Part shown: piece after piece, positions 9,455 to 44,226 of the stretch
Layout of the letters: every line of letters starts with the position of its first letter
How positions within the stretch are numbered: position 1 is the first letter of the stretch
Source: an uncultured virus (IMG/VR IMGVR_UViG_3300049170_000088)
Lineage: Duplodnaviria; Heunggongvirae; Uroviricota; Caudoviricetes
Direction: 5' to 3' (one strand)
DNA length: 64,000 nucleotides
Virus record (IMG/VR): IMGVR_UViG_3300049170_000088
Program-made: the position numbers and the translations under genes
Notes under the pieces: generated by a model
The model's database searches: none
What the model was told of the DNA's origin: nothing
Seen by the model: only the letters and a program-made list of their open reading frames with translations

Positions 9455-9484
9455 GCCGGGGCACCTCTCCTTGGGGTATCGGGG

Positions 9485-10977: not shown

Positions 10978-11030
10978 GATCTGGCACGTATCACCCCATA
11001 GCGGTCATACGGTGCGCGTGTTGCCGCGGA

Positions 11031-11426: not shown

Positions 11427-11506
11427 GCGCGAAAGCGCCCAACCAGGCTTCTCCTGAAGCCAGTTGGGCGCTACCCGAATGCTGGATTTGTTACCGTGAG
11501 TACGCC

Positions 11507-14155: not shown

Positions 14156-14204
14156 CGCGCGGCAGAAAGGGGCCGCGAGCCCCCTGTTTCCCGCTTGTGC
14201 GCCC

Positions 14205-14363
14205 CTACTTGCCGAAGATGTTGTAGGCGAATCCCAGGGCCACCAGGAGCGGGATGAACCACCACTCCAACCGCTTGCCGACAGCCTTCTCCGGCTCCAC
14301 GTTGCCCGTCTCGTCCCTGACCACGATCACGATCTTCTGTCGCTCGTTGTCCTGCGCGCCCAT
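14205..14363 (-). CDS. 52-aa membrane peptide (below the ORF-track cutoff)
   Basis: GGAGG RBS; MGAQDNERQK...WWFIPLLVALGFAYNIFGK. Confidence 0.5.
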   Translation of the reverse strand: MGAQDNERQKIVIVVRDETGNVEPEKAVGKRLEWWFIPLLVALGFAYNIFGK

Positions 14364-14529
14364 GCGCGTCCTCCCGGCTTCCGTTTAGGGCACCAGAATG
14401 CACCCGTTGGGCGCCCGAGTCATCCACCTACCTGCACTGTTACGGACTATGCGGGAGTATGCCGGAGTCGACGGTCGGGTCATCAGATCACCGTCAATGT
14501 CCGCTGCCCCCGATGGGCAGACCCGGTAT

Positions 14530-14730
14530 TCACTGCGGGAGTCCTGGGCCTCGACGATGACGTCCTTGCTTGTCAACGACGATCAAGGGCGGACAGCCGG
14601 GGCACGAGAAGAGGCCCTGAGAGCCGAGCCAGCGCCACCCCTCATCCCACAGGCCGGAGTGGTCCCGGTCTTCCGGCACGGGGGCGCTGGCCTTGCACCG
14701 GGTGCAGGTGACGGCAGTGGACTTCGTCAT
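14530..14730 (-). CDS. small zinc-ribbon protein
   Basis: CTRC...CPGC; ATG at 14730. Confidence 0.55.
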   Translation of the reverse strand: MTKSTAVTCTRCKASAPVPEDRDHSGLWDEGWRWLGSQGLFSCPGCPPLIVVDKQGRHRRGPGLPQ

Positions 14731-14762
14731 CAAGGGGCCTTTCTCGGGTGATCCACACCAGG

Positions 14763-15809: not shown

Positions 15810-16038
15810 GCCGGTTCCTTCCCTGCGCCGGGAGGCGCTGACCGGTAGGCCAGCGCTCATAGCAGACACAGTGTCATATACCGGGCATTCGGCAGCGGAA
15901 CGGCAGTGACTGGACTCGCCTTGGCGTCACGGGACGAAAACAGCAGGTCACCGAGGGTGCGCCGAATGGAAGAACGCCCCGTCAGGTCTGCGGACCGGAC
16001 GGGGCGTACCAGTGCCTCACCCGCTACCGTGACGGGCT

Positions 16039-22887: not shown

Positions 22888-22912
22888 GCCCCGCACCGGC
22901 ATGGTGCGGGGC
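22888..22912 (+). terminator. stem-loop
   Basis: GCCCCGCACC / GGTGCGGGGC. Confidence 0.55.
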
Positions 22913-22981
22913 CCCTTCCATGTCTGCGGTCCAAACTGGTCCCCGTACTCGAAACGGACTTATCGACCAGCGGAGACCCTT

Positions 22982-24145
22982 ATGGCCGTCAGCCGGTGCG
23001 CGCCACGCGTAGAGATCGCTCCTCCCCGCAGCACCCGCCGCCCCTTCGGCCTGTACTCCGTCGCCGAGGTCCGCGACGTCGAAGACGGCCACTGGTCGCA
23101 CGGCATCCAGTACCGCACCGAAGCGTGCTCCGGAAACGTCTACGCGTGGCCCAAGCCATGCCCCCCGGCCTGCGAGCCGGACTGCTTCGAGGCCACCACC
23201 ATCACCGTGCGCCTGGTCCACGAGGTCGAAGACCGCGACTGCGGCGACGTCTCCAAGATCACCGCTTCCGTGACGGCCCCCGCCACCCCCGCCGACCTGC
23301 CCTTCCGCACCATCATCAGTGTGTGGGTGGACTCCTGCGGCACCTCCGTGGACCTCACCCCCGGCGACACCGAAGTCACCGTCGCCCGCACCCCGGCCCG
23401 CGCCGGCGCCCTCAAGCCGCACGCGGTCACCGTCCGCGAGTCCTACAACGGCACCGAGAAGACCGTCAGCCTCGCGCCGCAGGCCACCACCGACGTCGTC
23501 CTGACCGCCGACCCCGACCAGCCGCGCCGGAAAGTCCTGGACGGCATCGGCCCGTGGATCGGCTCCGACCCCGTCCCCCTGTACTCCTCCGTGCACTGCA
23601 CCCCCGGCTCCGGCTTCGCCGAGGAGGCCAAGCGGATCACCGAAGACCGCCTGGCCTGCCAGGAGGAGTGCGCCGTGGAGGACTACCTGTGGACCCAACT
23701 CTCCGCCGGCGAAGCCCAGTACGTCGGCAACCCGGCCGCCCCCAAGACGTTCCTGTGCGCCATGGCGGAGCTGGAGGCCGCGACCGCCCGCGAGCGCTCC
23801 TGCACCACCGGCGTCCTGCACGTGCCCGCCCGGCTGTCCCTGCCGCTGTCCTCCGGAGGCTGCTGCCTCATCGAGGAGGAGGGCCGCGCACTGACCACCC
23901 GACTCGGCACGAAAATCGCCCTGGGAGCCTGCTACGACGACCGGATGCGGCCCGACGGCGTCCTCGCCGCGGAGGACCAGGTCGTCCTCATCGCCACCGG
24001 CCCCGTCGTCGTCCAGCGCGGCCCCATCAGCTCCTACGAGGGCCTGGACAAGGTCACCAACGACTACGCCGCCATCGCTGAACGCACCTTCGGCATCATC
24101 GCTGACTGCCCCCTGTTCTGGACCGTCGCGAAGAACTGCTCCTGA
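22982..24145 (+). CDS. capsid-associated (decoration/minor capsid) protein, paralog 2
   Basis: Paralog of 44227-45552: RPFGLYSVAEV..VEDGHW..GIQYR, RRKVLDG, GVLHVPA, TGPVVVQRGP, TNDYAAIAERT. Confidence 0.75.
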   Translation: MAVSRCAPRVEIAPPRSTRRPFGLYSVAEVRDVEDGHWSHGIQYRTEACSGNVYAWPKPCPPACEPDCFEATTITVRLVHEVEDRDCGDVSKITASVTAPATPADLPFRTIISVWVDSCGTSVDLTPGDTEVTVARTPARAGALKPHAVTVRESYNGTEKTVSLAPQATTDVVLTADPDQPRRKVLDGIGPWIGSDPVPLYSSVHCTPGSGFAEEAKRITEDRLACQEECAVEDYLWTQLSAGEAQYVGNPAAPKTFLCAMAELEAATARERSCTTGVLHVPARLSLPLSSGGCCLIEEEGRALTTRLGTKIALGACYDDRMRPDGVLAAEDQVVLIATGPVVVQRGPISSYEGLDKVTNDYAAIAERTFGIIADCPLFWTVAKNCS

Positions 24146-25069: not shown

Positions 25070-26533
25070 TCAGGTGGCGTCGAAGCGCGCGACGTAGCCG
25101 ATGCTGAATTCGGCCTGCGTGTCGATGTTCACGCGGACGTCGGCGCCGGCGGAGTTCTCCACCGTGACCTGCTGCGAGGTGACGATCTCGATGCAGAAGC
25201 CCGTCCCGCACGGGAAGACGGGCCACTGGAAGGACGTGCCGCCAGGACCGATCAGGGGAATGCGCTGTGTGGTCGTGACGAACTTCAGCTTGGGGTCCTT
25301 CTGGCGGCAGCGGGCGTACGCCTTCTGCGACCGGCCGTCGATGGAGATCGACGCGTTGGAAGGCAGCCAGGGGATGAACAGCTCCGCGCACGCCGTGCAG
25401 GGGTCGATGGGGTTCTTCGTGCAGTCCCGGCCCTGGAGGTTCTGGTAGAAGCGGAAGAGGGTGTTCTCCAGCGGCTGCGAGCCCGACTCGATGTTGATGT
25501 ACGGCACGCCCTCCGCCTGCCGCGGCATCAGCAGCGGAGACACCGTCTTGATGGTCCGCCACGCCGCGTAGGGCCTCTCGGGGTAGCAGCGGTCGACGGG
25601 CACCGGCACCTTGGGCACCGGGGGCGGGAAGGGGCAGTGCGGGTTCTCCTCGCACTTGGGTCCTTCGCGCTGCTGCTGGTCGCAGTCCTCGCGCTGCTGG
25701 TCGGGGTCGAACCGGGAGACCTTGCTGCCCTTGACGAACTTGGTGTAGTCCACGACGCGGATGGAGTCCGCGTACGCCCAGGGCTTGCCCGCCACGATGG
25801 TGAACTCCACGCCGGTCGCCACCGCGGCGCCGCCGCGGGCCCCGCCGAACCCGGCGCAGCCGCTCGCGCCTCCGCCGCCGATCTGCGTCACGGTGCCCGA
25901 GCCGGAGGTTCCGCCGCTGCCGCCGCCGGTCAGCGATGAGTCGCCGCCCGAGCCGCCCTGCTGTCCGCCGGTCAGTGCGATCTGGTTGGGGCCCTCCATC
26001 AGCCCGACGTCCATGAAGTGACGCAGGTAGCGGGAGCGCTGGCCCGGATTGTCGCCGTCGTCGTCCTGCGGGCAGCACGAGTAGATGCAGAAGGTCAGGC
26101 CCGAACACTCGTTGTTCTGGCAGGAGTTGCCGCGCAGGATGTGGGAGAGCCAGCCGATTGCGTAGATCAGCGCGCAGTGGTCCAGGGCGAAGACGGCCAG
26201 GGTGACCTGGATCTCGCGGTGCGCCATCCGCAGGGGTCCGATCACCGAGCCGTCGCCGACGGCTTCGGTGGGTGAGCGGGTGCCGGTGCCCCCGAAGCCC
26301 ACCATGTCCATCCCCATGAAGCCCAAGACGCGCTGCGACTCGGGGTAGTGCGGGTCGTACCAGGGCGCCCGGTCGGTCTTGGGCGTGGTGTAGAGCGGCG
26401 AGCCCAGGGCGGCGTTCAGGCCGTCGCAGGGCGCGCACATCATGCCGAGCCCGGCCCGCTGAGCGTAGGCGTAGGTGCGTGCCTCATTCAGGACCTCAAC
26501 CCCGCCGTATTCGGCGTACCCGAGGTAGGGCAT
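25070..26533 (-). CDS. minor tail protein (distal tail/Dit-like)
   Basis: ATG at 26533 with GGAGAG RBS; GYAEYGGVEVLNEART...APWYDP..PES resembles actinophage minor tail proteins that follow the tape measure. Confidence 0.65.
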   Translation of the reverse strand: MPYLGYAEYGGVEVLNEARTYAYAQRAGLGMMCAPCDGLNAALGSPLYTTPKTDRAPWYDPHYPESQRVLGFMGMDMVGFGGTGTRSPTEAVGDGSVIGPLRMAHREIQVTLAVFALDHCALIYAIGWLSHILRGNSCQNNECSGLTFCIYSCCPQDDDGDNPGQRSRYLRHFMDVGLMEGPNQIALTGGQQGGSGGDSSLTGGGSGGTSGSGTVTQIGGGGASGCAGFGGARGGAAVATGVEFTIVAGKPWAYADSIRVVDYTKFVKGSKVSRFDPDQQREDCDQQQREGPKCEENPHCPFPPPVPKVPVPVDRCYPERPYAAWRTIKTVSPLLMPRQAEGVPYINIESGSQPLENTLFRFYQNLQGRDCTKNPIDPCTACAELFIPWLPSNASISIDGRSQKAYARCRQKDPKLKFVTTTQRIPLIGPGGTSFQWPVFPCGTGFCIEIVTSQQVTVENSAGADVRVNIDTQAEFSIGYVARFDAT

Positions 26534-26544: not shown

Positions 26545-29500
26545 CTATGTCTCGGGCGGGTTGAGGACGGCGGTCACGCCCTTGTTCACGGCGGTGATGT
26601 ACTGGTTGAAGGCGGCTGTACGGTTCGCGGGGTTCTGGATGGACGCGAGGCTGAGGTCGCCGCCTGCGTAGAAGGCCTGGCGCTGCGTGCGGGAGATCTC
26701 GATCTGGCAGCCGGCGCCGAACTCGCACTTGTTGCAGATGTTGTCCCGGTCCGTTCCGGTCAGCCCGGACGGGGCGTCCTTGCACAGGAACCCGGCTGCG
26801 GTCAGCTCGGCGCGGATGGCGTCGCGCAGCTCGGTGTCCAGCCCTCCCACGTAGGTGAGGGCGGTGCCCGGCTCCCGGTCCGCGTGCCCGTGCCAGGACA
26901 CGATCCGCGGTGCAGAGGCCACGTGCGCGACTCCGGTGGGCTCGTCGAAGCGGGTGGAGGTGATGTGCAGCGACGCGTTGTTCGAGGGCTTGCGGCCGGA
27001 GAACGTGTAGAAGCCGTATCCGCCGTTCTGCGCCGCCTGGTCGGCGAGCTGTTCGGGCGGGGCTTCCATGCCGCCGCCGTGGATGGCGATGTGGCTCAGC
27101 CCGTTCGCCACTGGCCGCTCGATGATGAAGTAGTCCCGGTCCTTGACGTTGACCAGGGCGCCGGTGCCCGGGACCAGGTCGGTGGCCAGATCCTCGAAGT
27201 TGAAGTAGGTGTCATTGCCGAGGTCTTCGCAGGGCACCGGGTAGGGGCCGCCGCAGGCCCGGATGCTGGAGTCCTGGATGTCCTGGACGCATACCTCGTA
27301 GGAGCCCGGCTGGTACTCGCGCGGGCTGACGACCTCGCCGGTCGCCGCGGCGTGCGTCGTGGGGTTGGGGTCGTCCGGAATCCAGTAGATCTTGACGCCG
27401 CGGTTGTTCGCGTTGACGTACGAGACCTTGATCTTGTTGGCGTCCGGCGGGCACCCCTCGTACTTGATGCTGACGCCCTTGGCGGCCGGGGTGCCGGTAC
27501 AGGGGATCTGGGTGACGCCGGTCGCCACGGCGGTGCCGCCGTCGGCGTCCTTGACGATGATCTGTACGGGCTGGGATGCCCGGTGCGCCGGGGTGGCGTA
27601 CACGTTCGCCTTGCGGCGCCCGGTGGCGTCGGTGGAGAAGCCCCACGCCAGGCGGGGGCCTTCCGGGCTGGGCAGCACGAAGATCGACTCGGACTCTCGC
27701 CAAGTCAGGTTCGGGTACTGGTCGTTGGGGATGTTCGTGATGACGTTGCCGGTCGCCCCACGGATGTCGGTGACCGTCAAGCGGGCGTTGTTGGCGTCCC
27801 CGGCCCCGTAGAAGTGGTACGCGTAGTTCCCGTACAGCGTCCAGCACTGGAAGTTCGGGATCGACGTGTCGTTGACGGCGCAGTCGAAGACCGGGGAGCC
27901 GAACTGGCGCGCCAGGAAGTCCGACAGCTTCCAGACGGTGATGTGGTACTGGTTGTCCTGGCTGCGGTGGCGGACCGCGATGCGGTCGTGGTCCAGGTCC
28001 AGGCACGGGTTGACATGGTCGGAGTCGGGGCGCGGGTCGTAGCGCTCGATGCTCGGGTCGTTGGCCTGGAGGATCTTCCCGGCGGTGTAGGGGAAGCGGG
28101 CGACCTGGGTGCCGTATCCGTTGGAGCCGATGGCGGTGGGCGGCGGGTCGATGGCGGTGAAGAGGTTGACCGTGCTCCCCGAGTGCTGCACGCCGAGGCC
28201 CGAGCCGTGGTCCCAGCCGCGCGAGGGGCCGGGAAGGACACCGACCAGGTACATGTGGGAGATGGGCTCGGTGCCGTTGGGGGCGACGCGGTTGATGGCG
28301 AGGTGGCCGTTGGCCGCGCGCACGGCGTGGTCGATAGCGGCGTTCTCGCCGGCGAGCTGGCGTCCGCCGTTGATGACCTGGCTGAAGTAGACGTCGCCGT
28401 TGGTGCGGTCGACGTCGGCCTGCTGGTGCACGGTGGTCTGCGAGAGCGTGACCGTGCCGCCCAGGATCGGATCGGCCTTGCGGGCGACCTGGAGCGGGTC
28501 GCCCTCCTTCCAGTAGGTGTGGGCCGGGATCTGGCCGCTCTGGTAGGTCTGCACGTCGCCGTCGCCCCAGTCCACGGTGATCGGGTAGCGGGTTCCGGCG
28601 GCGATGTCCAAGGTGACCTTGTGGTCGTCGGCGGGGTCGCAGATGGCCGTGGCGTCGGGGCCGGACTGGCAGGGCACGTTGACGGTGTCGGCGCCGGTGC
28701 GGCCGTCCTCGTCGGGGTCGGTTGCGGTGATGACGAAGCGGCCGTCCAGACCGGCCGGGTACAGCACGGTCGTGACGTCCACCCCGTCGCCCTGGTTGGT
28801 GGCGTCGTCGATGGTGGCGCCGCTGGTGGCGCTGATGACGACCGAGCCGTGGCCGCGGTTGTCGGCGGTGACCTTGAAGCGGCGGCCGGTGCCGTCGGTG
28901 GGGTCGCAGACCGCGGCCACCGCGATCAGTTCGGCGCCGCCGCCGGTGCACACGGGGGTCTGCACGGAGCGGCAGCCGCCGTCCACGGCCTCGGAGCACA
29001 CCATGATCAGGAAGGAGCGGCCCAGGCCGTCAGGGTAGGCGTGGGTGAGGGTGCCGGGCCGTACGCCGGTCTGGAGCGGGGAGCCGTCGCCCCAGTCGAC
29101 GGAGACGGTGCCGCGGTCGTTGTTGAAGACGCTGATGGTGGCGGTGCAGCTCTGGTTCCAGGAGACGAAGGTGACGTCGGGGCGCAGGCCTCCGGCCACG
29201 TAGGTGCAGCGTCCGCAGAAGTTGGGGATGTCGTTGCGGCAGACCTTGATGGGGAAGCGGCCGTCGGTGGTGAAGGTGTGGCGCAGGCGGGCCGTGCAGT
29301 CCTCACCGACGGCGATGTACTGGTACTGGTCGGTGCCTGCGTCCTCGCCCCAGTCGACGCGCAGTCCGTACTTGCCGATCGGGGATTCGCCGGGGCAGGC
29401 GCAGGCCACGGTGTCGGGGTCCGGGGTGCCGCACCAGGCCTGGGTGGGCAGCGTGACGTCGACCAGGACACTGCGGCCGGTGTCGTCGGTGGGGTCCTGG

Positions 29501-30531
29501 AGGCAGCGGATGACCGGCTCGTCGGGGGGCAGGGGCACGGTCAGGGTGCGGTTGGTGCAGATCTGCGGGAACGCCTTGTCGCAGACGGTGAGTTCGTAGG
29601 TGGCCGGGGCGGCGTTGGGGTTGCCGCATCCGGCGCCGTAGCTGTGCTGGCCGATCTGTCCGTCGCGCAGCTCGGTTTCGGCGCCGTCGCCCCAGCGCAC
29701 GCGGACGGGGCCGTAGCCGCGGTTGTCGGCCTGGACGGTGACGAGGCATCCGGTGGTGTTGGAGCCGCGTTTGACGAGGACTTCGGGCGGCTCGGGGATG
29801 CCGCCGTCCACCGGCTGGATACCGCAGTCGGGTTCGGGAGGCGGGAAGGTCGTCACGAACTGCACGAAGTCGGCGTTCGCGCGGACGGGGCAGGCCAGCG
29901 GGGCAGGGCGCTGGCCGTCCATCAGCACGTTGTAGGGGCCGCGGCCCCAGCCGGAGGAGCGTCGGGTGGTGCCGGAGAAGGAGAAGGTGATGGGCCCGTT
30001 GGCGATGGTCCACTGGCCGATCTGGACGCCGGAGATGCAGGGGAAGAGGAGGTAGCCGTATTCGGCGCCGCCCTGGGACTGCTTGCAGGCGGCGCCGGCG
30101 CCGGAGTAGACGTTCATCCACACCTCCAGTGCGAAGCCGGAGGAGTCGCAGCCGCCGCCGGAGACCGCGGAGAAGCCGATGATCATGCCGGTGGAGTCGC
30201 GGATGGGGCACCAGTTGGGCTTCATGATCAGGACGAGGGAGGGGTCCAGGGCGCACAGTTCCAGGGAGACGCCGTAGTTGGAAGGGGTCGGGCAGGTCAG
30301 GGTGGTGAAGCAGACCTGTCCGTCGGCCTTGGTGATGGGGTTCTGGTCGCCCTGGTCACCGCCTTCGTCTTCGCCGGGTGAGACGACGATGTTGACGAAG
30401 GCATCAGTGGTGACCTGCCCGCTTCCGCCGGGGTTTTGGGGGTCCTCGAAGAGGGGGCGGCAGCACCCGTCCAGCTTGGTGGCGCGCAGCACAGCGGCAC
30501 CGCTGAAGCTGGGGCAGATCACCTGAGCCAT
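26545..30531 (-). CDS. tail tube paralog 2 fused to PKD repeats, TagC/RBP-like propeller and poly-gamma-glutamate hydrolase
   Basis: N-terminal ~520 aa highly similar to 42378-44126; repeated DWGDG..HTY; propeller-like segment; C-terminal HGGGME, HITSTRFDEP, SWHG, QIEIS. Confidence 0.8.
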   Translation of the reverse strand: MAQVICPSFSGAAVLRATKLDGCCRPLFEDPQNPGGSGQVTTDAFVNIVVSPGEDEGGDQGDQNPITKADGQVCFTTLTCPTPSNYGVSLELCALDPSLVLIMKPNWCPIRDSTGMIIGFSAVSGGGCDSSGFALEVWMNVYSGAGAACKQSQGGAEYGYLLFPCISGVQIGQWTIANGPITFSFSGTTRRSSGWGRGPYNVLMDGQRPAPLACPVRANADFVQFVTTFPPPEPDCGIQPVDGGIPEPPEVLVKRGSNTTGCLVTVQADNRGYGPVRVRWGDGAETELRDGQIGQHSYGAGCGNPNAAPATYELTVCDKAFPQICTNRTLTVPLPPDEPVIRCLQDPTDDTGRSVLVDVTLPTQAWCGTPDPDTVACACPGESPIGKYGLRVDWGEDAGTDQYQYIAVGEDCTARLRHTFTTDGRFPIKVCRNDIPNFCGRCTYVAGGLRPDVTFVSWNQSCTATISVFNNDRGTVSVDWGDGSPLQTGVRPGTLTHAYPDGLGRSFLIMVCSEAVDGGCRSVQTPVCTGGGAELIAVAAVCDPTDGTGRRFKVTADNRGHGSVVISATSGATIDDATNQGDGVDVTTVLYPAGLDGRFVITATDPDEDGRTGADTVNVPCQSGPDATAICDPADDHKVTLDIAAGTRYPITVDWGDGDVQTYQSGQIPAHTYWKEGDPLQVARKADPILGGTVTLSQTTVHQQADVDRTNGDVYFSQVINGGRQLAGENAAIDHAVRAANGHLAINRVAPNGTEPISHMYLVGVLPGPSRGWDHGSGLGVQHSGSTVNLFTAIDPPPTAIGSNGYGTQVARFPYTAGKILQANDPSIERYDPRPDSDHVNPCLDLDHDRIAVRHRSQDNQYHITVWKLSDFLARQFGSPVFDCAVNDTSIPNFQCWTLYGNYAYHFYGAGDANNARLTVTDIRGATGNVITNIPNDQYPNLTWRESESIFVLPSPEGPRLAWGFSTDATGRRKANVYATPAHRASQPVQIIVKDADGGTAVATGVTQIPCTGTPAAKGVSIKYEGCPPDANKIKVSYVNANNRGVKIYWIPDDPNPTTHAAATGEVVSPREYQPGSYEVCVQDIQDSSIRACGGPYPVPCEDLGNDTYFNFEDLATDLVPGTGALVNVKDRDYFIIERPVANGLSHIAIHGGGMEAPPEQLADQAAQNGGYGFYTFSGRKPSNNASLHITSTRFDEPTGVAHVASAPRIVSWHGHADREPGTALTYVGGLDTELRDAIRAELTAAGFLCKDAPSGLTGTDRDNICNKCEFGAGCQIEISRTQRQAFYAGGDLSLASIQNPANRTAAFNQYITAVNKGVTAVLNPPET

Positions 30532-30690
30532 TGGGCGGATTCTCCTCTATCGTCAGACTTCGCCCATTCTGTCCGCTTCCCTCCGTTCCGTCGCGTAGCG
30601 CGACCGGCACGAGCGGCGCAGCCGCACCACAGACCACCAAGCAGCCACAATGGGGCAAAGCTCTGAAACCGCCCACATTGAGGTAGCTCT

Positions 30691-32076
30691 GTGACGCAGG
30701 AACCCGACACCCAGCACGAGCAGGACCAGGAGCACCCGGACCCCTTCGCCCTCCTGGTGCAGGCCGCCGCCTCCGCCCGCGGAAGCATCGACAACGCCGT
30801 TCACCAGCTCGCCGTCCGCTTCGCCGAGACCTCCGCCGCCCAGGAGGAACGGGACGGCGAGCACCGCGAGGCCCTGCGCCAGCTCTCCCTGGTGGCCCTG
30901 GACATCAACGAGGCCTTCCAGAACGCCGCGGCGGAGACCACCCGCGAACTGGGCCGCCTCAAGCAGCAGGGCGCCACCCACCAGGAGACGACCGGCAAGC
31001 GGATCGTCCAGTCCACCCAGGCCCTGACTCAGCGCTTCGACGCCGCCGACACAAAGCTGGAGGAGATCAGCGACAGTCAGGGCGAGCACTACCGACTCAC
31101 CGGCGCCGTCCTGGAGAAGGTCTCCCCGCTGCCGGAGAACCTGTTCGACTACGCGGAGAACACCCGTGACCAGATCGGCCAGCTCTCCCAGGCCGTCGCC
31201 GATCACCAGGCGCTGACCGCCGCCGTCCGCGAGGACGTGAGCGCGCTGCCCGAGGCGATCAGCGGCCAGGGGGAGGAGACCCGCGAGCAGGTGGGCGCCG
31301 CGCTCGCCCTCGTCCGTACCGCGCTGGACGCCATCCGCGAGACCGGCGCGGACGTGCGCGGCGTGGAGAACGCCCTCGCCATGGTGATCGGAGCCGCACG
31401 GGACCAGATCCTCGCCCCGCTGAACCAGTACGCCGCCCACGCCGCCGACCGCGGAAACGAGCACACCGGCCGCCTGGAACGCATTCAGCACGTCGTGGAG
31501 GCCGCCGTCGCCGAACAGGCCACGCACTCCACCGTCCTGGAGGCCATCGCCGGGGAGAGCCACGCCACCGCCCAGGCCGTCCCCCAGGCCCTGTCCCAGA
31601 CGCTCGATGCGCTCGCGGCCGCCGGCGAGGAGACCCGGCGCACCGTGCTGGACGTCGAACAGCGCATCTCCGCGGCGCTCGCCCTGAACGCCGAGCGCGC
31701 CGACCAGGCCCTGACCTCGATCGCCGCGAACCTGGGCCACTTCAGCGCGACCTTCGACGCCTTCGCCGAGCAGGCCGCCAGCGCCGCGGCCGTCGACACC
31801 CTGCGCGGGGACGTCTCTGCCCTCTCGGAGCTGCTGGCCTCCAGCACCGAGGACTTCACCGGCGCCGTCCAGCAGGCGGTCGCCGACATGACCACGATGC
31901 GCACCGCCTGGTCGCAGGAGTCCGCCGCGGTGCTCCAGGCCCTGGACAAGATGGGAAGGATGTTCCTGGAGAAGGCCAATGCGAGCGAGTACGCGCGCGA
32001 CCAGGGCGTCATCGAGCTGGGACGCAGGGTGGCGCGCCTGGAGCTGGACCGGGCTCCGGCGGCCGTGGGGTCCTGA
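30691..32076 (+). CDS. long alpha-helical/coiled-coil protein
   Basis: 461 aa Ala/Glu/Gln/Leu-rich, amphipathic, no Cys; high GC3. Confidence 0.8.
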   Translation: MTQEPDTQHEQDQEHPDPFALLVQAAASARGSIDNAVHQLAVRFAETSAAQEERDGEHREALRQLSLVALDINEAFQNAAAETTRELGRLKQQGATHQETTGKRIVQSTQALTQRFDAADTKLEEISDSQGEHYRLTGAVLEKVSPLPENLFDYAENTRDQIGQLSQAVADHQALTAAVREDVSALPEAISGQGEETREQVGAALALVRTALDAIRETGADVRGVENALAMVIGAARDQILAPLNQYAAHAADRGNEHTGRLERIQHVVEAAVAEQATHSTVLEAIAGESHATAQAVPQALSQTLDALAAAGEETRRTVLDVEQRISAALALNAERADQALTSIAANLGHFSATFDAFAEQAASAAAVDTLRGDVSALSELLASSTEDFTGAVQQAVADMTTMRTAWSQESAAVLQALDKMGRMFLEKANASEYARDQGVIELGRRVARLELDRAPAAVGS

Positions 32077-32228: not shown

Positions 32229-32930
32229 TCAGCCCGTGGCGGAATCCGGATAGGCGTAGATGTCCCCCACGGTCGCGATCTCGCGCCAAAAGACCTGGTC
32301 AGGGGCATGATAGGCACTCAGGAGGCCTTCGGCGGCGATGGTCTCGTAGACGTTTGTGATCTCACCCACCTCCGGCAGCATCTTCACGGTGTAGGGCTGG
32401 AGCACGGTCAGCCCGGCGTCGATCCAGTACGGCAGGAGCTGCACCTGGGGCAGGGCGCGGATGCGCCCGTCCTCGCTCTCCAGGGCGACGGGGCGTTCGG
32501 TGGTGTAGCGCACCAGGGCCATGGTGGCGCTCGCGCGCGCCTGGGCGTGGCGCTCGAAGAGCGGCGCGAGGGGCAGGTCGGTGACGACGGAGCCGTTGAC
32601 GAGGAGGAAGGGCCGGGCGGGGTCTTCCAGGGCCCCGTGGGCGTAGGCGACGGCTCCGGCGGTGCCCAGCGGGGAGGGCTCGACCGCGTGGCGCACGCGC
32701 AGGCCGTAGTAGCCGCCTCCGCCGACGAATTCGGAGATCTGGCGGTGCTGGTAGCGCGAGGCGATCACTACCTGGCCGATGCCTTGGGCTGCCAGCCAGG
32801 AGAGCTGACGGGTGATCAGCGCGAGGCCGCCGACCGGCATGAGGGCCTTGGGCATGGAGTCGGAGTAGGGCCGCAGGCGTTCGGCACGGCCGCCCGCCAG
32901 GATGATCGCTTGAGTGATGGAGGGCTCCAT
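32229..32930 (-). CDS. sugar-phosphate nucleotidyltransferase (NTP_transferase)
   Basis: AIILAGGRAERLRPYSDSMPKALMPV; EPSPLGTAGA; LVNGS in place of the usual NGD. Confidence 0.85.
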   Translation of the reverse strand: MEPSITQAIILAGGRAERLRPYSDSMPKALMPVGGLALITRQLSWLAAQGIGQVVIASRYQHRQISEFVGGGGYYGLRVRHAVEPSPLGTAGAVAYAHGALEDPARPFLLVNGSVVTDLPLAPLFERHAQARASATMALVRYTTERPVALESEDGRIRALPQVQLLPYWIDAGLTVLQPYTVKMLPEVGEITNVYETIAAEGLLSAYHAPDQVFWREIATVGDIYAYPDSATG

Positions 32931-33112: not shown

Positions 33113-33394
33113 TCAGCCGTTGTTGACCGGCAGGAGGTCGCCGTCGGCCTGCGGCGCAGCGTTCTCGTTGGCGCCCTGGTAGGGGCCGACCTTGGAGCCG
33201 ATCACCGGCACCGCGACCTGAGCCGGGACGGTGGCGTGGTCCAGGACCGAGATGTCGCCGTTGATCAGCGAGGTGACCGGCGCCGTGGAGTGCGGGGCGC
33301 TGTCACCGTTTCGCGTTCCGTCGGCCGCGGCCACGCCGGCAGAGGCGGCGACGGCGGCACCGGTGACGAGCGCCGTGGCGATGAGCTTCTTCAT
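33113..33394 (-). CDS. small secreted protein, rodlin-like
   Basis: Sec signal MKKLIATAL...AAA; APVTSLING...ENAAPQADGDLL loosely resembles rodlin motifs. Confidence 0.55.
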   Translation of the reverse strand: MKKLIATALVTGAAVAASAGVAAADGTRNGDSAPHSTAPVTSLINGDISVLDHATVPAQVAVPVIGSKVGPYQGANENAAPQADGDLLPVNNG

Positions 33395-33639
33395 GGGAAT
33401 CTCCCGGAGGTGTGCAGACTTGGGGGTACGCCCGGACCGAGCCGGACGGGTGATCACTCCCGTCCGGAGACGGAAGTGATCTGCGAGCCGTTGGTGACGG
33501 GACGTGGCCCGCTCCTGTCACTCGTTAAACATGATCAGACTCGCGAAGACACGGATCTTGGCCTGCACACGCCCAAGGTCATACAAGCTGAGCGCCGTCC
33601 GGGTGATCCGGACGGCGCTCGGGGAAAGGGCAGGTCAGG

Positions 33640-33891
33640 CTACTTGACCTTGACCCATCCGCAGTAGTGACCGTGCCAGGGGTGCAGCAGGTCCAGGTCG
33701 ACGTTGAGGTTGAGCAGTCCGCCCAGTCCGACGTGCACGTCAGAGGGGTCCGTGCAGATCCACACGTACCCGGAGCGGGAGTTGAAGGGCGTGGACGGGG
33801 GCTCGGGGTCGGCCGCCGCCACGGCGGGGGCAGCAGCGGCGAGAGCCAGGACGGGAACGGCCGCAAGAGCGGCGAGGCGTCGGAGCATCAT
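33640..33891 (-). CDS. small secreted protein
   Basis: Signal peptide; two Cys flank the hydrophobic strand GLGGLLNLNVDLDLL. Confidence 0.6.
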   Translation of the reverse strand: MMLRRLAALAAVPVLALAAAAPAVAAADPEPPSTPFNSRSGYVWICTDPSDVHVGLGGLLNLNVDLDLLHPWHGHYCGWVKVK

Positions 33892-33977
33892 GCCGCAATT
33901 GTCGGACGAATCGACATAGAATGCACTTAATAACACAGACCAGTTACAAACCGGACAGGCGGTGATGGGAGCCACGC

Positions 33978-34986: not shown

Positions 34987-36420
34987 TCAGGACTGCATGT
35001 CCGCGAACTCGACGGCCGCCGCGGGAGGCGGGGGCAGCTCGCCGCGCTCGAACCAGGCCGCCGCCGCCGCGTCGCCCGCGGCCTGCGCGGTCGCCGCGCG
35101 GGCCCCGGTCTCGTCCACGCCGGGCACGTCCATCGGCGTCATCCCCACCGCGATCTTCTCGCCCGCCTCGTCCCAGGTGACGGTGACGTTGGACAGCACG
35201 AACGCCTGCTGCACCTTCCGGCAGGCCCGATCCACCCGCATGTCGAAGCGGTAGCCGCACACGAGCTGGTCGAAGCACAGCGGCGCCTCCGGGTGCAGGG
35301 CTGCACCGTTGTCCACCGCGATGGATACGGGCACCGGGTAGCGGCCCTTCAGCTCCGCCTTGGCGATGTCCAGCAGGGCGGCGCGCTGGTCGGCCTCGCA
35401 TTCGGTGGTGCAGTCGTCCACGCAGTCACGGATGCACTTGTTGCACGCTGACTGGCGGGAGGCGGGGGTGTCGCAGTTCCAGGACTTCTTGGTCTTGGAG
35501 TACTCGCACGGCCCGCACAGGGTGCTTCCCCGGCACTTGCCGCTGCCCGGCTTCGTGCAGTCCTTCTCCTCGCACTCGCACTTGGGCACGTCGGTGGAGG
35601 AGACCAGCCAGTCCACCCGGCCGTAGGGGTTGTTGCAGCTCTTGCCGGTGGTGACGGTCTGGCGGTCCTTCTCCGAGGACCCGTTGGTGGCCACGGCCCT
35701 GGTGGCGAACTCCTGGCCGTCGCGCACGATCTGGAAATCGCCCATCAGGTCGTCGGTGGTCAGCGTGGCCACCGGCAGGTCGTCCTTGTCCGGCTTGCCC
35801 TTCAGGATCAGCCGGCGCCCCACCGTCGTCCAGTACAGGCCCGACTTGACCAGCTCCGACAGCAGGTCGACGACGTACTTCGTCTGGTCCTGCGGCTTGT
35901 ACGCGGGCCGGGCGCCGACGTTGGAGCGAGAGATGAAGGGGGTCAGGCAGGCGTGGTCGACCTTCTTGCCGTCCTGGGTGGTGGTGCAGGCGTACCTGGA
36001 GTTCAGGAGGTTGTGGTCGATGTAGTACTTCGCGATCGTGGAGACGTCGGCCTCGCCCCGCTTGTACTTCTTGGTGGAGAAGTTCACGATGCGGGCCAGC
36101 CACGCCGTGATGTCCCAGGCCTCCACCGTCACCTCCGCGCGGGTCTCGGTGACCGTCATGACCGGCCCCTGCCACACCAGGTCGGCATCCCGGTAGATGG
36201 ACAGCTCGTGCAGCCACGGTTCGATCTGCCCCACGCCCTCGCAGCACACGTCGTCCAGCGAGTCCTTGGTGATGACGATGGTCGCCGTCGCGGTGTCATT
36301 CAGGGTCCGCTCGTACGTCAGCGACGTCAGGCTCTCCACCGGCAGGAACACCTGGTCCCCGCACCGCCAGTGGATGACGGCGTGGTAGGAGGTGGGACAG
36401 CCCAGCGTGCACAGCGCCAC
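34987..36420 (-). CDS. minor tail protein (baseplate hub/Tal-like)
   Basis: LTYERTLNDTATATI, IEPWLHELSIYRD..LVWQGPV, YGRVD and LHPEAP..FDQLV fit siphovirus hub proteins; directly after the tape measure. Confidence 0.75.
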   Translation of the reverse strand: MALCTLGCPTSYHAVIHWRCGDQVFLPVESLTSLTYERTLNDTATATIVITKDSLDDVCCEGVGQIEPWLHELSIYRDADLVWQGPVMTVTETRAEVTVEAWDITAWLARIVNFSTKKYKRGEADVSTIAKYYIDHNLLNSRYACTTTQDGKKVDHACLTPFISRSNVGARPAYKPQDQTKYVVDLLSELVKSGLYWTTVGRRLILKGKPDKDDLPVATLTTDDLMGDFQIVRDGQEFATRAVATNGSSEKDRQTVTTGKSCNNPYGRVDWLVSSTDVPKCECEEKDCTKPGSGKCRGSTLCGPCEYSKTKKSWNCDTPASRQSACNKCIRDCVDDCTTECEADQRAALLDIAKAELKGRYPVPVSIAVDNGAALHPEAPLCFDQLVCGYRFDMRVDRACRKVQQAFVLSNVTVTWDEAGEKIAVGMTPMDVPGVDETGARAATAQAAGDAAAAAWFERGELPPPPAAAVEFADMQS

Positions 36421-36429: not shown

Positions 36430-38766
36430 CTACGCCGCGAGGGCAGCGGCCAGGGCGCGCTGCATCCGGTGGACGATGATGTCGTTCTGGCTCGCCGCGG
36501 TGTGGATGTGCACGGCCACATCCCGCGGTGCCACCCGGCCGCCGGAGGCCGCGCCGGAGCGCACCATCAGCTCCATCAGACCGGCCTTCTCGGCGAGTTC
36601 GGCGGCCCGCTGCGGCCGGGTCAGCGGGATGACCACCTCGGGACCGGCCTCGCCCACCAGTGCCTTGGTGGGGCCCGCGATGATTCCGCCGGAGGCCAGG
36701 TTCACGCCGGGGATCTTGTTGAGGGCGCCCTTGCCGAAGTCCTTGATGGCGCCGCCGATGTCCTTCAGCTTGCCCAGCGCCTTCCCGGCCCACTCGAACA
36801 GGGTCTTCAGCACGCCGACGACACCGGAGATGGCGCCCTTGACGAGTTCGAGGGCTCTCTTGACCGCCGGGGTCTCCTTGGCCCACCTGCCGAAGGCAGT
36901 CACGGCCTTGGCCACCGCGGAAATGATCTTGAGAACCTGGGTGATGACCTGGACGGCCACGCCGATCAGTTTCGTCAGCACGGAGACCAGTGGCGGCAAG
37001 GCCGTGATCGCCAGCTCCATGATCTTGATCACGAGCGGGCCGACCGCCCCCCACAGGTCGACGAAGGTCGTCGCCAACTGGGCGATCAGCGGGGCGAGTT
37101 GGGTGATCGCGTCAGCCAGGGCCTGGCCCAAGATCTCGATCAGGTCGGTCAGCGGCCCCTCGACCATCGGCGTCAGAATTGCGGCAACTTGGGCAAAAGC
37201 CTCAATAACGGGCTGAAAGGCAGGAACTAGGGCATCTAGGACCTTCGACAGTTGCTCGCCGAGGAGCGTGAGCAGTTGCTCGATCAGCGGCATGAACGGC
37301 TCCAGCAGAGCCGTAATGATCTTGAGGGCTTCGCCGAAGGCTTCGAGCAGTACCCCGCCGATCTCGCCGAGCCCCTTGGCCAGGGGCTCCAGCACCTCAA
37401 GCAGGCCGGTGATCGCTTCCGTGGCGACGTGCGTCCCGTCAGCCATCGGCTTGAACAGCTCGCCGAAAAGCCCGAGCAGGCCTCCCACCAGCTCCAGGAT
37501 GTCGCCGAAGGCGCGCATCCCGTTGGACATCGCCTCGAAGGCGTCAGAGCCCTCGCCGCCCGCCGAGGCGTTCTTCAGGAACTCGCCGAACTTCTCGCCG
37601 GCGGCGCCGATCGCCTCGCCCATCCGCTCCCAGAGCGGGAGCGTGTTCGCCACGACGGCGGCGATGCCCTCCATCGCCGGGCCGACCGCATCACCGAAAC
37701 CCTTCGCGACCGCCTCAAGGATCTTGAAGGAGTCCGCAACGAGCTGGATGCCCTCCTGGGTGCGGAAGAACTTCTCGAACTCGGTGATGATCCGGTTGAC
37801 GGCCTCGAACGCGCCGTTGAGCGCGGCCGTGCCGACCGGCGTGTTCAGCGCGTCATTGATCGCATCCTTCAGACCGCCGAAGGACTCCTTGAGTTCGTCC
37901 CCTCTCTTCTTCCAGAGGATGAAGGCCGCAGCAGCAGCAGCCGCGGCGCCGGGGATGGCGTAGATCAGGCCCGCGAGCGGGGCCAGGAGGACCACCAGGG
38001 CCGCGATCGCGTAGCCGAGCGCGGCCGACTGGCGCCCCACGATGCCGCCGAGCGTGGCGAATGCGGACTGAATGCGCCCGAGCTGACGGACCGTGCGGTT
38101 CGCGTTGCGGGTGATGTCCCCGTCTCCGCCCCCGTCTCCGCCGCTGCGGCGTCCGCCGGTGGCCGGTCCACGGCCGTTGCCGCAGGGGTTGCCGCCGATG
38201 GAGACACACCGCACCCGCACCGTCGCCGGCGGCATGCCTCGGGTGAGGGCGTTGACCTGGGCGCGGAACCCTGCCGCCAGCGGGCGAAGGCGGATGCCCG
38301 CCTCCATGCCCCGCGTGAGGGCGTTGACCTTGGTGCGGAACCCGGTGGCGACGGGGTTGAGGCGGATGTTCGCCTCTATGCCGCTGGTGAGGGCATTGAC
38401 CTTCTGCTTGAACCCGGCCGCGATGGGGTTCAGGCGGATGTTGGCCTCGAATCCGCCCGTGAGGGTGTTGACCTTCTGGCGGAATCCGGTCGCCAGGGGG
38501 TTGAGGCGGATGTTCGCCTCCATGCCCCTGGTGAGGGCATTGACCTTCTGCTTGAACCCGGCGGCCAGCGGGTTCAGGCGGATGTTCGCGGTCATGCCGC
38601 GGGTCATGTTGTTGACCGCGGTGCGAAAGCCGGTCATGTCCGGCCTCACGCGGACCTCGGCGTCGCCGACGGAGGCGATGGCCGCTTCCACTTCCTCCCG
38701 GAAGCGCGACGTGTCCGCGACGATGCGGACATCCGCCTCGCCGATCGAACCCGCCGGAGTCGTCAC
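36430..38766 (-). CDS. tape measure protein
   Basis: IGEADVRIVADT N-terminus; long amphipathic repeats; C-terminal LASGGII.GPT.ALVGEAGPEVVIPL. Confidence 0.9.
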   Translation of the reverse strand: MTTPAGSIGEADVRIVADTSRFREEVEAAIASVGDAEVRVRPDMTGFRTAVNNMTRGMTANIRLNPLAAGFKQKVNALTRGMEANIRLNPLATGFRQKVNTLTGGFEANIRLNPIAAGFKQKVNALTSGIEANIRLNPVATGFRTKVNALTRGMEAGIRLRPLAAGFRAQVNALTRGMPPATVRVRCVSIGGNPCGNGRGPATGGRRSGGDGGGDGDITRNANRTVRQLGRIQSAFATLGGIVGRQSAALGYAIAALVVLLAPLAGLIYAIPGAAAAAAAAFILWKKRGDELKESFGGLKDAINDALNTPVGTAALNGAFEAVNRIITEFEKFFRTQEGIQLVADSFKILEAVAKGFGDAVGPAMEGIAAVVANTLPLWERMGEAIGAAGEKFGEFLKNASAGGEGSDAFEAMSNGMRAFGDILELVGGLLGLFGELFKPMADGTHVATEAITGLLEVLEPLAKGLGEIGGVLLEAFGEALKIITALLEPFMPLIEQLLTLLGEQLSKVLDALVPAFQPVIEAFAQVAAILTPMVEGPLTDLIEILGQALADAITQLAPLIAQLATTFVDLWGAVGPLVIKIMELAITALPPLVSVLTKLIGVAVQVITQVLKIISAVAKAVTAFGRWAKETPAVKRALELVKGAISGVVGVLKTLFEWAGKALGKLKDIGGAIKDFGKGALNKIPGVNLASGGIIAGPTKALVGEAGPEVVIPLTRPQRAAELAEKAGLMELMVRSGAASGGRVAPRDVAVHIHTAASQNDIIVHRMQRALAAALAA
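38234..38660 (-). repeat. 72-bp (24-aa) tandem repeat in the tape measure N-terminus, five clear units plus one degenerate
   Basis: EANIRLNPxAxGFxxKVNALTxGM; GAGGG..TTGACCT recurs at 38245, 38317, 38389, 38461 and 38533. Confidence 0.9.
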
Positions 38767-41868: not shown

Positions 41869-42393
41869 CTACCGCTTGGAGGCAGAGATGGTGAAGGTGA
41901 TGCCCTCGCCCGCCTCGCAGCACTGCGTGGGGTAGTCGCCGCCGTCGTCGACCTGGCACGCCTTGGCCTGGTAGGTGCCCGGCTGGAGCGGCCCCAGCGG
42001 CGCCGTGTCCCCCGAGCCGCCGCCGGTCACCGGCGCGGACTGGGCGACCGGCGCCCCGTCCTTGTAGAGCACGGCCACGGTGTCGGCCTCCCCGTCGGGG
42101 TGCGCGATGGACACCACCACGTGGTCCTGCTCGTCGCCGGTGAGCTGGGTGGCCACCACCAGCGGGCGCACACACGAGGGCACGCCGCCGGGGGCGAAGG
42201 ACGGCGCGAAGCCGTAGGAGTAGCTGCCACAGGGGATCGTGACGGTCCGCTGTCGCTGCACCCCGTCCTCGGTGGTCGCGGTGATGGTGAAGGTGCCCTC
42301 GGTGGCGTACCGGTGGGGCCTGACGCCCTTGTCGCCGGTCCACTGCTCCGGGTAGGTCCCGTCACCCCAGTCGATGGTTACTGTGCGAGGCAT
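41869..42393 (-). CDS. PKD/Ig-like domain protein (possible continuation of tail tube 1)
   Basis: Starts TVTIDWGDG...HRYATEGTFTIT; overlaps the tail tube stop by 16 nt; GGAG upstream. Confidence 0.7.
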   Translation of the reverse strand: MPRTVTIDWGDGTYPEQWTGDKGVRPHRYATEGTFTITATTEDGVQRQRTVTIPCGSYSYGFAPSFAPGGVPSCVRPLVVATQLTGDEQDHVVVSIAHPDGEADTVAVLYKDGAPVAQSAPVTGGGSGDTAPLGPLQPGTYQAKACQVDDGGDYPTQCCEAGEGITFTISASKR

Positions 42394-44126
42394 GGCGACA
42401 GCACTCCCAGATCAGTGCAGACGGTGTCGATGGCGAGGTTGATCGTGTGGCGGTCGGCGCTGTAGATGTCGCACTCGGGGTCGATGTTCAGGCAGTCGCC
42501 GGGAACGCCGGGACACACTGGCGGCCGGACGGTGCCCGCGCACTGCTTCTTGTCGACCTCGGAGCACACGACGACAGCCGGGCGACGGCCGCGGAACGTC
42601 GACCCGTAGTTGAAGGTGACTTCCTCGGACGGGGTGACGTTCGTCTGGCGCCCCTCGGGGGTGCCGGTGCCCCAGTCGATCGAGACGGTGCCCTTGCCCC
42701 AGTTGTCGATGCAGAGAACCAGCTGGCAGTTGTCGCGCCACTCCTTGAACATCACCAGCGGGCGCAGGCCTCCGCCGGCGATGAACGGCTCCTTGGAGCA
42801 GAACGTCGGGATGTCGTTGCGGCAGATCTTGATGGAGAACGTGCCGTCGGTGGCGTACTCGTGGCGCAGCCGCACCGTGCACTCGTCGTTGACGGCGATG
42901 TACTGCACCCGGTCCGGTCCGGCGGAGTCGCCCCAGTCCACGGAGATGCCGTACTGGCCAATCTGCGATTCGCCGGGGCAGGCGCACTTGAGGACGTCGT
43001 CCGAGGGCGGCCCGCACCAGGCGTGCGGCGGCAGGCTGACGTCCACCACGGCCGTCTTGCCGGTGGTGTCGGTGGGGTCCTGGTAGACCGTCAGGACCGG
43101 CTCGTCGTCCGGCAGCGGCACCAGGATGGTCTTGGTCGACTGGATCTGCGGCCACTGCTTGTCACGGACGGTGATCGTGCGCTCGACCGGCGCGGAGCCG
43201 GGCGCGCAGTTGGCGTAGGTGTGCGTCGCCGATCCGTAGGAGCGCACGGTGGAGATCTCGCCGTCGCCCCAGTCCACCTCGACCGGTCCGAAGCCGTGGT
43301 TGTCAGGCCGCAGTTCGACGGTGCACCGGTCCTGGCCCGGAACGCCCTGGATGAACAGGTCCGCCGGCTCGGGGATGCCGCCGTCGACCGGCTGCTTGCC
43401 GCACTCCGCCTCGGGGGGCGGAAAGGTGGTCAGGAACTGGATGAAGTCGTCGTCCTCGGCGACCGGGCAGGGCAGCGGGGAGGGGGTGCCGTTGTCCATC
43501 AGCACGTTGTAGGGGCCCTTGCCCCAGTTGCTTCCGCGCTTGGTGGTGCCGGTGAAGGAGAAGCTGATCGGTCCGTTCTGGACGGTGAACTCGCCGATGC
43601 TCACGTTGGTGATGCAGGGGAAGAGGAGGTATCCGTGCTGGGCGGCTCCGCCCTGGCGGCAGGCTCCGGAGGCACCGGAGTAGACGTTCATCCACAGCTC
43701 CAGCGCGAAGCCGGAATCACAGTTCGCCTTGCCCTTGGCCGTGAATCCGATGATCGTGCCAGTGGAGTCCCTGATCGCGCACCATGCGGGCTGCATGATC
43801 AGGACGAGTTCGGGGTCCAGCGCACACAGGGTCAGGTTGATCGTGTAGGCCTGCGGCGGGTTGCACTGGACGGTGGTCATACAGGTCTGGCCGTTGGCCT
43901 TGACGACGGTGTCTCCCTCACCGCCACCTCCGCCGCCGCCGCCTCCGCCGCCGCCCTCTTCGCCTTCGCCGGGGCTGACTTGGACGGACACGAAGGCGTC
44001 CGTGGTCACCTGGCCGGAGTTGCCGGGGTTGTCGGGGTCTTCGTAGACCGGCGCGCAGCAGCCGTCCACCTTCGTGGCGCGCAGCACGGCGGCGCCGCTG
44101 TAGCTAGGGCAGATCACCGAGGCCAT
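42378..44126 (-). CDS. major tail (tube) protein with PKD extensions, paralog 1
   Basis: LRATKVDGC, FVSVQVS, KANGQTC, FALELW, GYLLFP, WGKGPYNV; three DWG-type PKD repeats. Confidence 0.8.
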   Translation of the reverse strand: MASVICPSYSGAAVLRATKVDGCCAPVYEDPDNPGNSGQVTTDAFVSVQVSPGEGEEGGGGGGGGGGGGEGDTVVKANGQTCMTTVQCNPPQAYTINLTLCALDPELVLIMQPAWCAIRDSTGTIIGFTAKGKANCDSGFALELWMNVYSGASGACRQGGAAQHGYLLFPCITNVSIGEFTVQNGPISFSFTGTTKRGSNWGKGPYNVLMDNGTPSPLPCPVAEDDDFIQFLTTFPPPEAECGKQPVDGGIPEPADLFIQGVPGQDRCTVELRPDNHGFGPVEVDWGDGEISTVRSYGSATHTYANCAPGSAPVERTITVRDKQWPQIQSTKTILVPLPDDEPVLTVYQDPTDTTGKTAVVDVSLPPHAWCGPPSDDVLKCACPGESQIGQYGISVDWGDSAGPDRVQYIAVNDECTVRLRHEYATDGTFSIKICRNDIPTFCSKEPFIAGGGLRPLVMFKEWRDNCQLVLCIDNWGKGTVSIDWGTGTPEGRQTNVTPSEEVTFNYGSTFRGRRPAVVVCSEVDKKQCAGTVRPPVCPGVPGDCLNIDPECDIYSADRHTINLAIDTVCTDLGVLSPCLAQ

Positions 44127-44226
44127 ACGCCACGACTCCATTCACGAATCTGTCCGATACATACCTACTGGATGCATTCTGTCCGTTTTTTGAGCTTTCG
44201 TCTGCTGTGCCGGGTTCAGTGTCGGA

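Follow-up and report, generated by a model that had tools for sequence, protein, structure and literature searches.

A second tail-tube gene with a receptor-binding-type propeller and a poly-γ-glutamate hydrolase domain in a probable Streptomyces siphophage element

Tail tubes that carry surface decorations have been described in several phages. In SPP1 gp17.1*, lambda gpV, T5 pb6 and TpeX of the 936 phages the tube protein has a C-terminal Ig-like or carbohydrate-binding extension, and TpeX binds host cells (PMC8718954, PMC6669499). These extensions consist of one Ig domain or carbohydrate-binding module and often arise by frameshifting. Duplicated tube proteins are also known: T5 p140, like T4 gp54 a baseplate tube-ring protein, forms the ring beside the distal tail protein Dit (10.1101/2022.09.20.507954). 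Here, we describe a second tail-tube gene, TTP2 (26545..30531 on the minus strand; 1328 aa), in a 64,000-nucleotide stretch of DNA from an uncultured member of the Caudoviricetes (IMG/VR record IMGVR_UViG_3300049170_000088; the whole stretch is referred to as the window). Unlike the extensions above, TTP2 is a separate paralogous gene and encodes six Ig-like repeats, a full propeller of the receptor-binding protein (RBP) type and an enzyme domain. T5 p140 has no decoration and shares 9% identity with pb6, whereas the tube domain of TTP2 is 67% identical to that of the main tube protein, TTP1, and is followed by about 1080 residues of cargo.

The window has a structural gene set of the mycobacteriophage cluster-B type. 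In the B5 phage Mysterious cryo-EM has resolved gp20 (278 aa) as the tube, gp28 (477 aa) as Dit and gp29 (362 aa) as the hub (PMC13252515). The gp20, gp28 and gp29 of the B5 phage Acadian have the same numbers and lengths and correspond to phrog_792, phrog_838 and phrog_837; they match the tube, Dit and hub genes of the window. The cluster-B-type loci that we have seen contain one tube gene of 230-350 aa, whereas the window has two (582 and 1328 aa), with Dit behind the second. Both cargo domains of TTP2 likewise have described relatives. The five-bladed propellers of P68 gp17, phi11 Gp45 and 80alpha gp61 (PF21311; PMC4901313) share cavity glutamines with TTP2; in these staphylococcal proteins the propeller is combined with a trimeric stem and tower, whereas in TTP2 it sits in a PKD repeat of a tube protein. 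The hydrolase family is that of PghP from the Bacillus phage phiNIT1 (PDB entry 3a9l) and PghL/YndL (PF05908; PMC6506827, PMC4497714), which share their metal and catalytic residues with TTP2 but are stand-alone enzymes of about 210 aa, whereas the TTP2 domain is the C-terminus of a predicted structural protein. Streptomyces phages also have uncharacterized PghP-(propeller)-hub proteins (P0007 and P0010-P0017) with the same two cargo domains; there they are N-terminal with the hydrolase before the propeller, whereas in TTP2 they are C-terminal on a tube protein with the propeller before the hydrolase.

We lean, with modest confidence, towards an explanation in which TTP2 is an accessory tube subunit, likely in a Dit-adjacent ring, that displays a binder of wall glycopolymers and an enzyme that cuts poly-γ-glutamate (γ-PGA). 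Duplication of the main tube gene would have given rise to TTP2, whose tube domain would join the tail, most likely as one or more rings beside the Dit hexamer, while TTP1 builds the main tube. The chain of PKD repeats would hold the P68/phi11-type propeller outwards, where it would bind a cell-wall glycopolymer as the hub propeller does in related phages, and the terminal zinc peptidase, an exchangeable end cassette, would cut or thin γ-PGA, giving the propeller and the tail tip access to the wall. Incorporation into the particle, position, ligand and substrate are what we infer here. The fuller claim, that the adsorption apparatus has been rebuilt on a duplicated tube subunit with a receptor domain and a working depolymerase directed at a γ-PGA coat of Streptomyces, is put forward only tentatively.

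The TTP2 gene is real and intact and is unusual in its combination of parts, each of which comes from a known family. The open reading frame (ORF) is free of stops and is preceded by a GAGGAG ribosome site, and the GC content at third codon positions (GC3) is 0.91-0.96 across all of its domains. The original prediction, made from the DNA letters alone, had proposed this ORF and a set of motifs, all of which are present: AHTYWKEG (residue 670), TTVHQQ (699), HMYL (759), HGSGLGV (775), GYG (805), PVQIIVKD (988), HGGGME (1151), HITST (1189), SWHG (1212) and QIEIS (1276). The ORF is covered in one soil-metagenome run by overlapping unitigs with zero differing letters and an even depth of ~570-670; because this run may be the window's own source, the agreement speaks only for self-consistency of the assembly. 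A chimeric assembly was rejected, as the unitigs are concordant and the tube-PKD-propeller architecture recurs in five other protein clusters; this recurrence excludes a chimera for the tube-PKD-propeller part, and one of these clusters (P0004, from S. noursei) also has the hydrolase. A shadow ORF was likewise rejected as a reading of TTP2.

The N-terminal domain (29797..30531, minus strand; residues 1-245) is the tail-tube domain that had been proposed: residues 10-242 match phrog_792 (major tail protein) with an E-value of 1.9e-50, and Acadian gp20 matches by tblastn with an E-value of 4e-25. A search of PDB sequences gave no solved relative of this domain, and an alignment-free fold of residues 1-1106 has a predicted local distance difference test score (pLDDT) of 34, with values below 50 across residues 1-245. 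The canonical tube gene, TTP1 (42378..44126, minus strand; 582 aa), consists of a tube domain and three PKD repeats and occupies its customary position behind the capsid genes. TTP2 residues 1-543 are 55% identical to TTP1, and repeats 1-3 are common to both proteins. TTP1 and TTP2 form separate clades (support 92/84) across the elements found. We rejected TTP2 as the major tail protein because TTP1 holds the position upstream of the tape measure, whereas TTP2 lies downstream in its own unit; the description of TTP2 as a minor, second subunit is borne out.

The long tube fusions found in the protein database, where the first search scored the best 8000 candidates only, fall into six clusters at 90% identity, and all six carry the propeller. 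Within TTP2, conservation is highest in the tube domain, which is 73-82% identical to its homologues, compared with 50-72% elsewhere. Its dN/dS is 0.25-0.43, with higher values in the other domains; with GC3 above 0.9 there is saturation at synonymous sites, and these values serve to rank the domains only. Of 60 tube positions conserved in the family, 45 are kept in TTP2 and 45 in TTP1, against a median of 52 in the 62 distant rows from which the positions were themselves defined. The strong conservation of the domain and the equal retention of these positions argue, from sequence comparison, that the TTP2 tube domain still assembles.

The two tube genes also have an upstream motif in common. 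A promoter-like motif, CGGACAGAATG, lies upstream of TTP2 (30565..30575, minus strand), with a second copy, CGGACAGAATG, upstream of TTP1 (44175..44185, minus strand), both found by motif comparison. The pattern CGGA(C/A)AGAATG, picked after the regions upstream of both tube genes had been viewed, occurs twice in the window, once per tube gene, where 0.04 occurrences are expected. Across 176 loci it has eight matches, all upstream of a tube gene; the exact pattern is not kept at TTP1 of locus L001 or TTP2 of locus L082.

Behind the tube domain lie PKD/Ig-like repeats 1-4 (28666..29790, minus strand; residues 248-335, 339-449, 451-527 and 538-622). The Pfam PKD_4 match in TTP2 is weak (E-value of 1e-3), and the repeats were delimited with a profile built from homologues with repeat 5 excluded. 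This profile finds six PKD-like units, the fifth of which is split over residues 626-1012. The first part of repeat 5 (28504..28656, minus strand; residues ~626-676) is matched by the profile at 626-688, and its closing strands (27496..27573, minus strand; residues ~987-1012) are matched weakly at 973-1012 (i-E of 0.04); strands in an AlphaFold model of residues 578-1106 (mean pLDDT of 91 with a 115-row alignment) are seen for both parts. Repeat 6 (27226..27459, minus strand; residues ~1025-1102) was identified with the repeat profile. The two profile halves and the strand pattern of the model support the proposal that the propeller is inserted within PKD repeat 5.

The inserted segment (27577..28482, minus strand; residues ~684-985) is identified as a five-bladed beta-propeller of the receptor-binding type by Pfam, model and structure matches. 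PF21311 scores above its cut-off for the isolated middle part of TTP2 (26.9 versus 23.7 bits) and goes unreported in a scan of the whole protein; PHROGs tail-protein matches extend over residues 707-986, and a propeller profile matches the PDB with an E-value of 7e-26. The model aligns closely with the RBPs of P68, 80alpha and phi11 (Z-scores of 28.2-29.5, root-mean-square deviations of 2.6-2.8 Å, 263-271 residues aligned; best match Z 29.5, 2.8 Å, 271 residues), the next unrelated fold has a Z-score of 16.8, and Foldseek agrees with the RBP match. The RBP-like propeller of the original prediction is thus upheld. In a profile alignment the polar residues Gln165, Thr211 and Gln330 of the phi11 cavity correspond to Q703, S777 and Q895, and the apolar Met164 and Met329 to H702 and F894. 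The staphylococcal stem and tower are not matched, as the flanks of the propeller are PKD-like repeats and the matches span the propeller alone. By sequence and model TTP2 shares the PF21311 domain but stands outside the staphylococcal RBP architecture.

The propeller most likely passed from the hub to the tube in the TTP2 lineage, as judged from gene content and sequence trees. In all nine viral loci in which the propeller was found it forms the baseplate hub's N-terminus, and the gene order in each is tape measure, Dit, propeller-hub fusion. The window's own hub has neither propeller nor hydrolase according to PHROGs and sequence comparison, and in quick trees the tube-borne propellers nest among the hub-borne ones. 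Monophyly of the 19 hub-borne rows is rejected in the quick tree (p-AU of 0.0006); 70 of 95 stand-alone propellers had been omitted at random from the first tree, and the one-clade test was picked once that tree had been viewed.

The C-terminal domain (26545..27210, minus strand; residues ~1108-1328) is a PghP-type zinc-dependent γ-PGA hydrolase domain, as originally proposed. It matches PF05908 with an E-value of 6e-45 (153.5 bits against a cut-off of 22; profile positions 13-190 of 191), PDB entry 3a9l with E-values of 4e-30 and 3e-31 in two comparisons and the PHROGs poly-γ-glutamate hydrolase at residues 1131-1318. The zinc ligands His40, Glu45 and His103 of PghP correspond to H1151, E1156 and H1214, and His78, Thr80, Ser81 and Glu165 to H1189, T1191, S1192 and E1278; R1284 is also kept. 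All of the residues reported as essential in PghP (PMC6506827) are retained and, at the level of sequence, the active site is intact.

The distribution of this domain fits an end cassette that recombination has exchanged, or several losses. Two of the six tube-propeller clusters end in the hydrolase (the window and P0004) and four in another PKD repeat; the hydrolase form of S. noursei is encoded as WP_366409376.1. In a quick tree, in which P0004 has a long branch, the window hydrolase is sister to that of P0004 (SH-aLRT of 96) and adjoins PghP-hub fusions, whereas the tube tree places the window with the PKD-ended forms, apart from P0004 (99/96 and 95/88). The similarity of TTP2 shifts from PKD-ended homologues to P0004 near residues 1085-1100; this switch, the conflict between the trees and the presence of the domain in two of six clusters are the reasons for reading the hydrolase as a cassette. 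Among 121 longer PghP-bearing proteins the domain is N-terminal in 111, C-terminal in six and internal in four. Tail-family matches (hub, Dit, Gp37-like and others) were found in 25 of 42 that were scanned; these were picked by hand from among the 120 matches listed, so as to include the top matches and at least one per length class, and none of the 42 matched the tube family. Fusions of PghP to actinophage tail proteins are thus common, and the idea of an enzyme carried on the virion is not unique to TTP2. The window hydrolase may have replaced another enzyme gene. A gene of ~690 aa follows the hub in L001, L086/L087, L090 and L091, and distantly in L167-L175, and is cleanly absent from the window, where the junction downstream of the hub (34987/34958) has lost it and kept the following 79-aa gene; this gene, for which an Atlas lead only (score of 0.88) suggests a GDPD-like protein, could sit outside the window.

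The gene order around the tail tip has changed along with the tube. The hub gene (34987..36420, minus strand; 477 aa), matched by phrog_837 in its C-terminal part only, directly follows the tape measure gene (36430..38766, minus strand; 778 aa), while Dit (phrog_838; 25070..26533, minus strand; 487 aa) lies 11 nt behind TTP2. Tape measure, Dit, Tal is the usual order (PMC9863714), and of 32 loci with both genes, some of which are duplicated across collections, 29 have Dit immediately ahead of the hub. The three exceptions, namely the window, pSTRVI02 (a 191-kb plasmid from Streptomyces violaceusniger Tu 4113) and L086, are all TTP2 elements. TTP2 and Dit are adjacent in the window, L001, L082, L083 and L085, and are separated by an inserted ORF in L086. 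As L082, L083 and L085 fall with pSTRVI02 into one 90% cluster and closely resemble it, at most about three lineages are left besides the window; the gene context covers clusters other than P0002, P0004 and P0006. TTP2 is a tube paralogue encoded with baseplate genes, an arrangement expected of a baseplate tube ring like that of T5 p140 or T4 gp54. The coupling of TTP2 to Dit, together with the precedent of T5 p140, is why we favour a position in a Dit-adjacent ring.

This position bears on the suggestion that adsorption and depolymerase functions have moved from the tail tip onto a minor tube subunit. The move may hold for the genes, as the propeller most likely derives from a hub gene and the nearest relatives of the hydrolase are hub fusions. 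It may not hold for the position in the particle because TTP2, coupled to Dit, may build a ring that touches the baseplate; in that case the functions would have changed genes but stayed at the tip. The paralogy with TTP1, the relocation of Dit, the propeller-less hub and the swappable hydrolase go beyond what had been noted originally.

Several points weigh against the preferred explanation. The T5 precedent differs from TTP2 in its low identity to the main tube protein and its lack of decoration. The TTP2 tube domain diverges faster than that of TTP1 (82% versus 91% identity between the window and pSTRVI02). The phi11 cavity site for GlcNAc was modelled and not measured (PMC4901313). Four of the six homologous clusters lack the hydrolase, and these include that of pSTRVI02, though its host has pgsB and pgsC. 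Outside Bacillales, the co-occurrence of pghP with pgsB is limited to 13% of cases (PMC4497714), and in the literature covered γ-PGA production by Streptomyces is no more than a prediction from genes. Finally, particle formation by TTP2 elements is uncertain, as the pSTRVI02 terminase gene is split and the window yielded no terminase and lacks the ~690-aa gene behind the hub.

The alternative that survives best, which we consider possible but on the unlikely side, is that TTP2 is a minority subunit dispersed over the length of the tube in the manner of SPP1 gp17.1* or the lactococcal TpeX, with gene duplication as its source. The shaft would then be studded with binders and enzymes, and the particle would creep through the polymer coat. 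The high identity of the two tube domains, the three PKD repeats in common and the SPP1 and TpeX precedents of extended, host-binding tube subunits (PMC8718954, PMC6669499) allow mixing along the shaft, as does the shared upstream motif; the 67% identity and the heavy decoration, unlike T5 p140, also fit such mixing. It leaves unexplained, however, the move of Dit behind TTP2, which is kept in all four lineages with gene context.

A separate question is what the hydrolase cuts. The original prediction of a γ-PGA-coated target is plausible from gene content: paired pgsB and pgsC homologues occur in many Streptomyces, including Tu 4113, where they are adjacent (PMC4497714). The same paper warns that the genes do not prove γ-PGA production. 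It is unlikely, although less so than for the readings discussed below, that the enzyme is virion-borne and active but directed at γ-PGA of neighbours, such as a Bacillus biofilm, or at another actinobacterial γ-glutamyl polymer. The rarity of pghP beside pgsB outside Bacillales and the lack, in the literature covered, of any demonstration of γ-PGA on Streptomyces cells are in keeping with such a target. The pgsB-pgsC pairs tell against it, as does the recurrence of PghP on tail proteins of actinobacterial phages, the hub and Dit among them, a pattern in keeping with a barrier on the host.

The element that carries TTP2 is probably a cluster-B-like temperate Streptomyces siphophage and a phage-plasmid like pSTRVI02. 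The structural genes of the window, on the minus strand, comprise portal, protease, hexamer and pentamer capsid, tube, adaptor, chaperone, tape measure and hub genes, and all of its head and tail genes are open; other genes encode ParA, an integrase, a DNA methylase and glycosyltransferases. The presence of portal, protease, capsid and adaptor genes led us to reject a contractile-injection-system locus. pSTRVI02 has the same structural gene order and is 67-85% identical to the window over much of its length; in its sequence record the terminase is split over two frames, far from the structural block (128715-129691 of pSTRVI02, corresponding to L165:28715-29691). Two scans of GTDB genome contigs and a viral scan with a single protein gave no relatives. 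We regard it as improbable that TTP2 stays outside infectious particles, either because lysis sets it free as an enzyme or decoy in soluble or oligomeric form or because the particles that the element makes are defective. The characterized PghP of phiNIT1 is called non-structural and released at burst (PMC6966330), while PMC5380687 places PghP among virion-associated enzymes. The split terminase of pSTRVI02, the missing ~690-aa gene and the location of TTP2 beyond the main structural operon are consistent with a non-virion role. Against it stand the conservation of the tube domain, the open head and tail genes and the coupling to the essential Dit gene. It is highly improbable that the main subunit is alternatively TTP1 or TTP2, with two types of particle that differ in host range as the outcome: the separate transcription units with the same upstream motif and a second capsid-pentamer paralogue nearby (22901-24145) would suit such a system, but no invertible segment or switch is seen, a tube built from 1328-aa subunits alone would presumably be very crowded, and Dit depends on the TTP2 unit, which must hence be expressed for any particle.

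Other features of the element were noted. The second capsid-pentamer gene (phrog_779, plus strand) is 35% identical to the canonical copy (45552-44227) and is also doubled in pSTRVI02; the element has doubled both a capsid gene and a tube gene. In a distant virus (L009:9104-13508) the capsid pentamer (712 aa) has PKD-like repeats, as has the tube protein (750 aa). The structural proteins of the window are strikingly rich in cysteine, with 43 Cys residues in TTP2 and Cys-rich inserts in the capsid hexamer, adaptor and hub. The tape measure is short (778 aa versus 1997 in B5; PMC13252515) and begins with repeats of ~21 aa. Two small genes with signal-peptide-like starts (33113-33457 and 33640-33975, both on the minus strand) lie between the hub and TTP2; neither has a convincing family match, and pSTRVI02 has three copies of the first. 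A 461-aa protein encoded divergently from TTP2 (30691-32076, plus strand) adjoins it in L001 and L082-L086 as well; family scans found no family for it and the Atlas gave no usable match. The ORF between TTP2 and Dit in L086 (L086:13556-14215) starts with a copy of the Dit start and has motifs that we take to be HNH/endonuclease VII-like. The portal gene contains an insert of ~157 aa (53029-52559, minus strand) that starts with C and ends with GN before S, a pattern that we assume to be mini-intein-like; it is present in pSTRVI02 and absent from distant portals, and has no Pfam match. Three glycosyltransferases, a methyltransferase and a nucleotidyltransferase (8462-15869 and 32229-32930) are common to the window and pSTRVI02, and may serve to modify either the surface of the host or the particle itself.

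In the literature covered (titles and the beginnings of abstracts, with subscription papers outside this scope) we found no tube protein that combines a catalytic domain with a full RBP-type propeller, and nothing on TTP2, on tube proteins bearing an enzyme or on the tail of pSTRVI02-like elements. Decorated tubes and baseplate tube paralogues are known; what this literature did not yield is the combination of a tube paralogue, an RBP propeller and a catalytic domain with a relocated Dit. If TTP2 is part of the virion, the tube serves as a display scaffold for about 1000 residues of cargo, and this phage family breaks the usual rule by which the tape measure gene is followed by Dit and the genes for receptor binding. 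An intact hydrolase on the tails of Streptomyces phages would be evidence that γ-PGA is made and shields the cells, and S. violaceusniger Tu 4113 combines a close element with pgsB and pgsC homologues in one strain. Taken together, the architecture of TTP2 suggests a virus that clears and grips a coated host using a part that usually serves only as plumbing.

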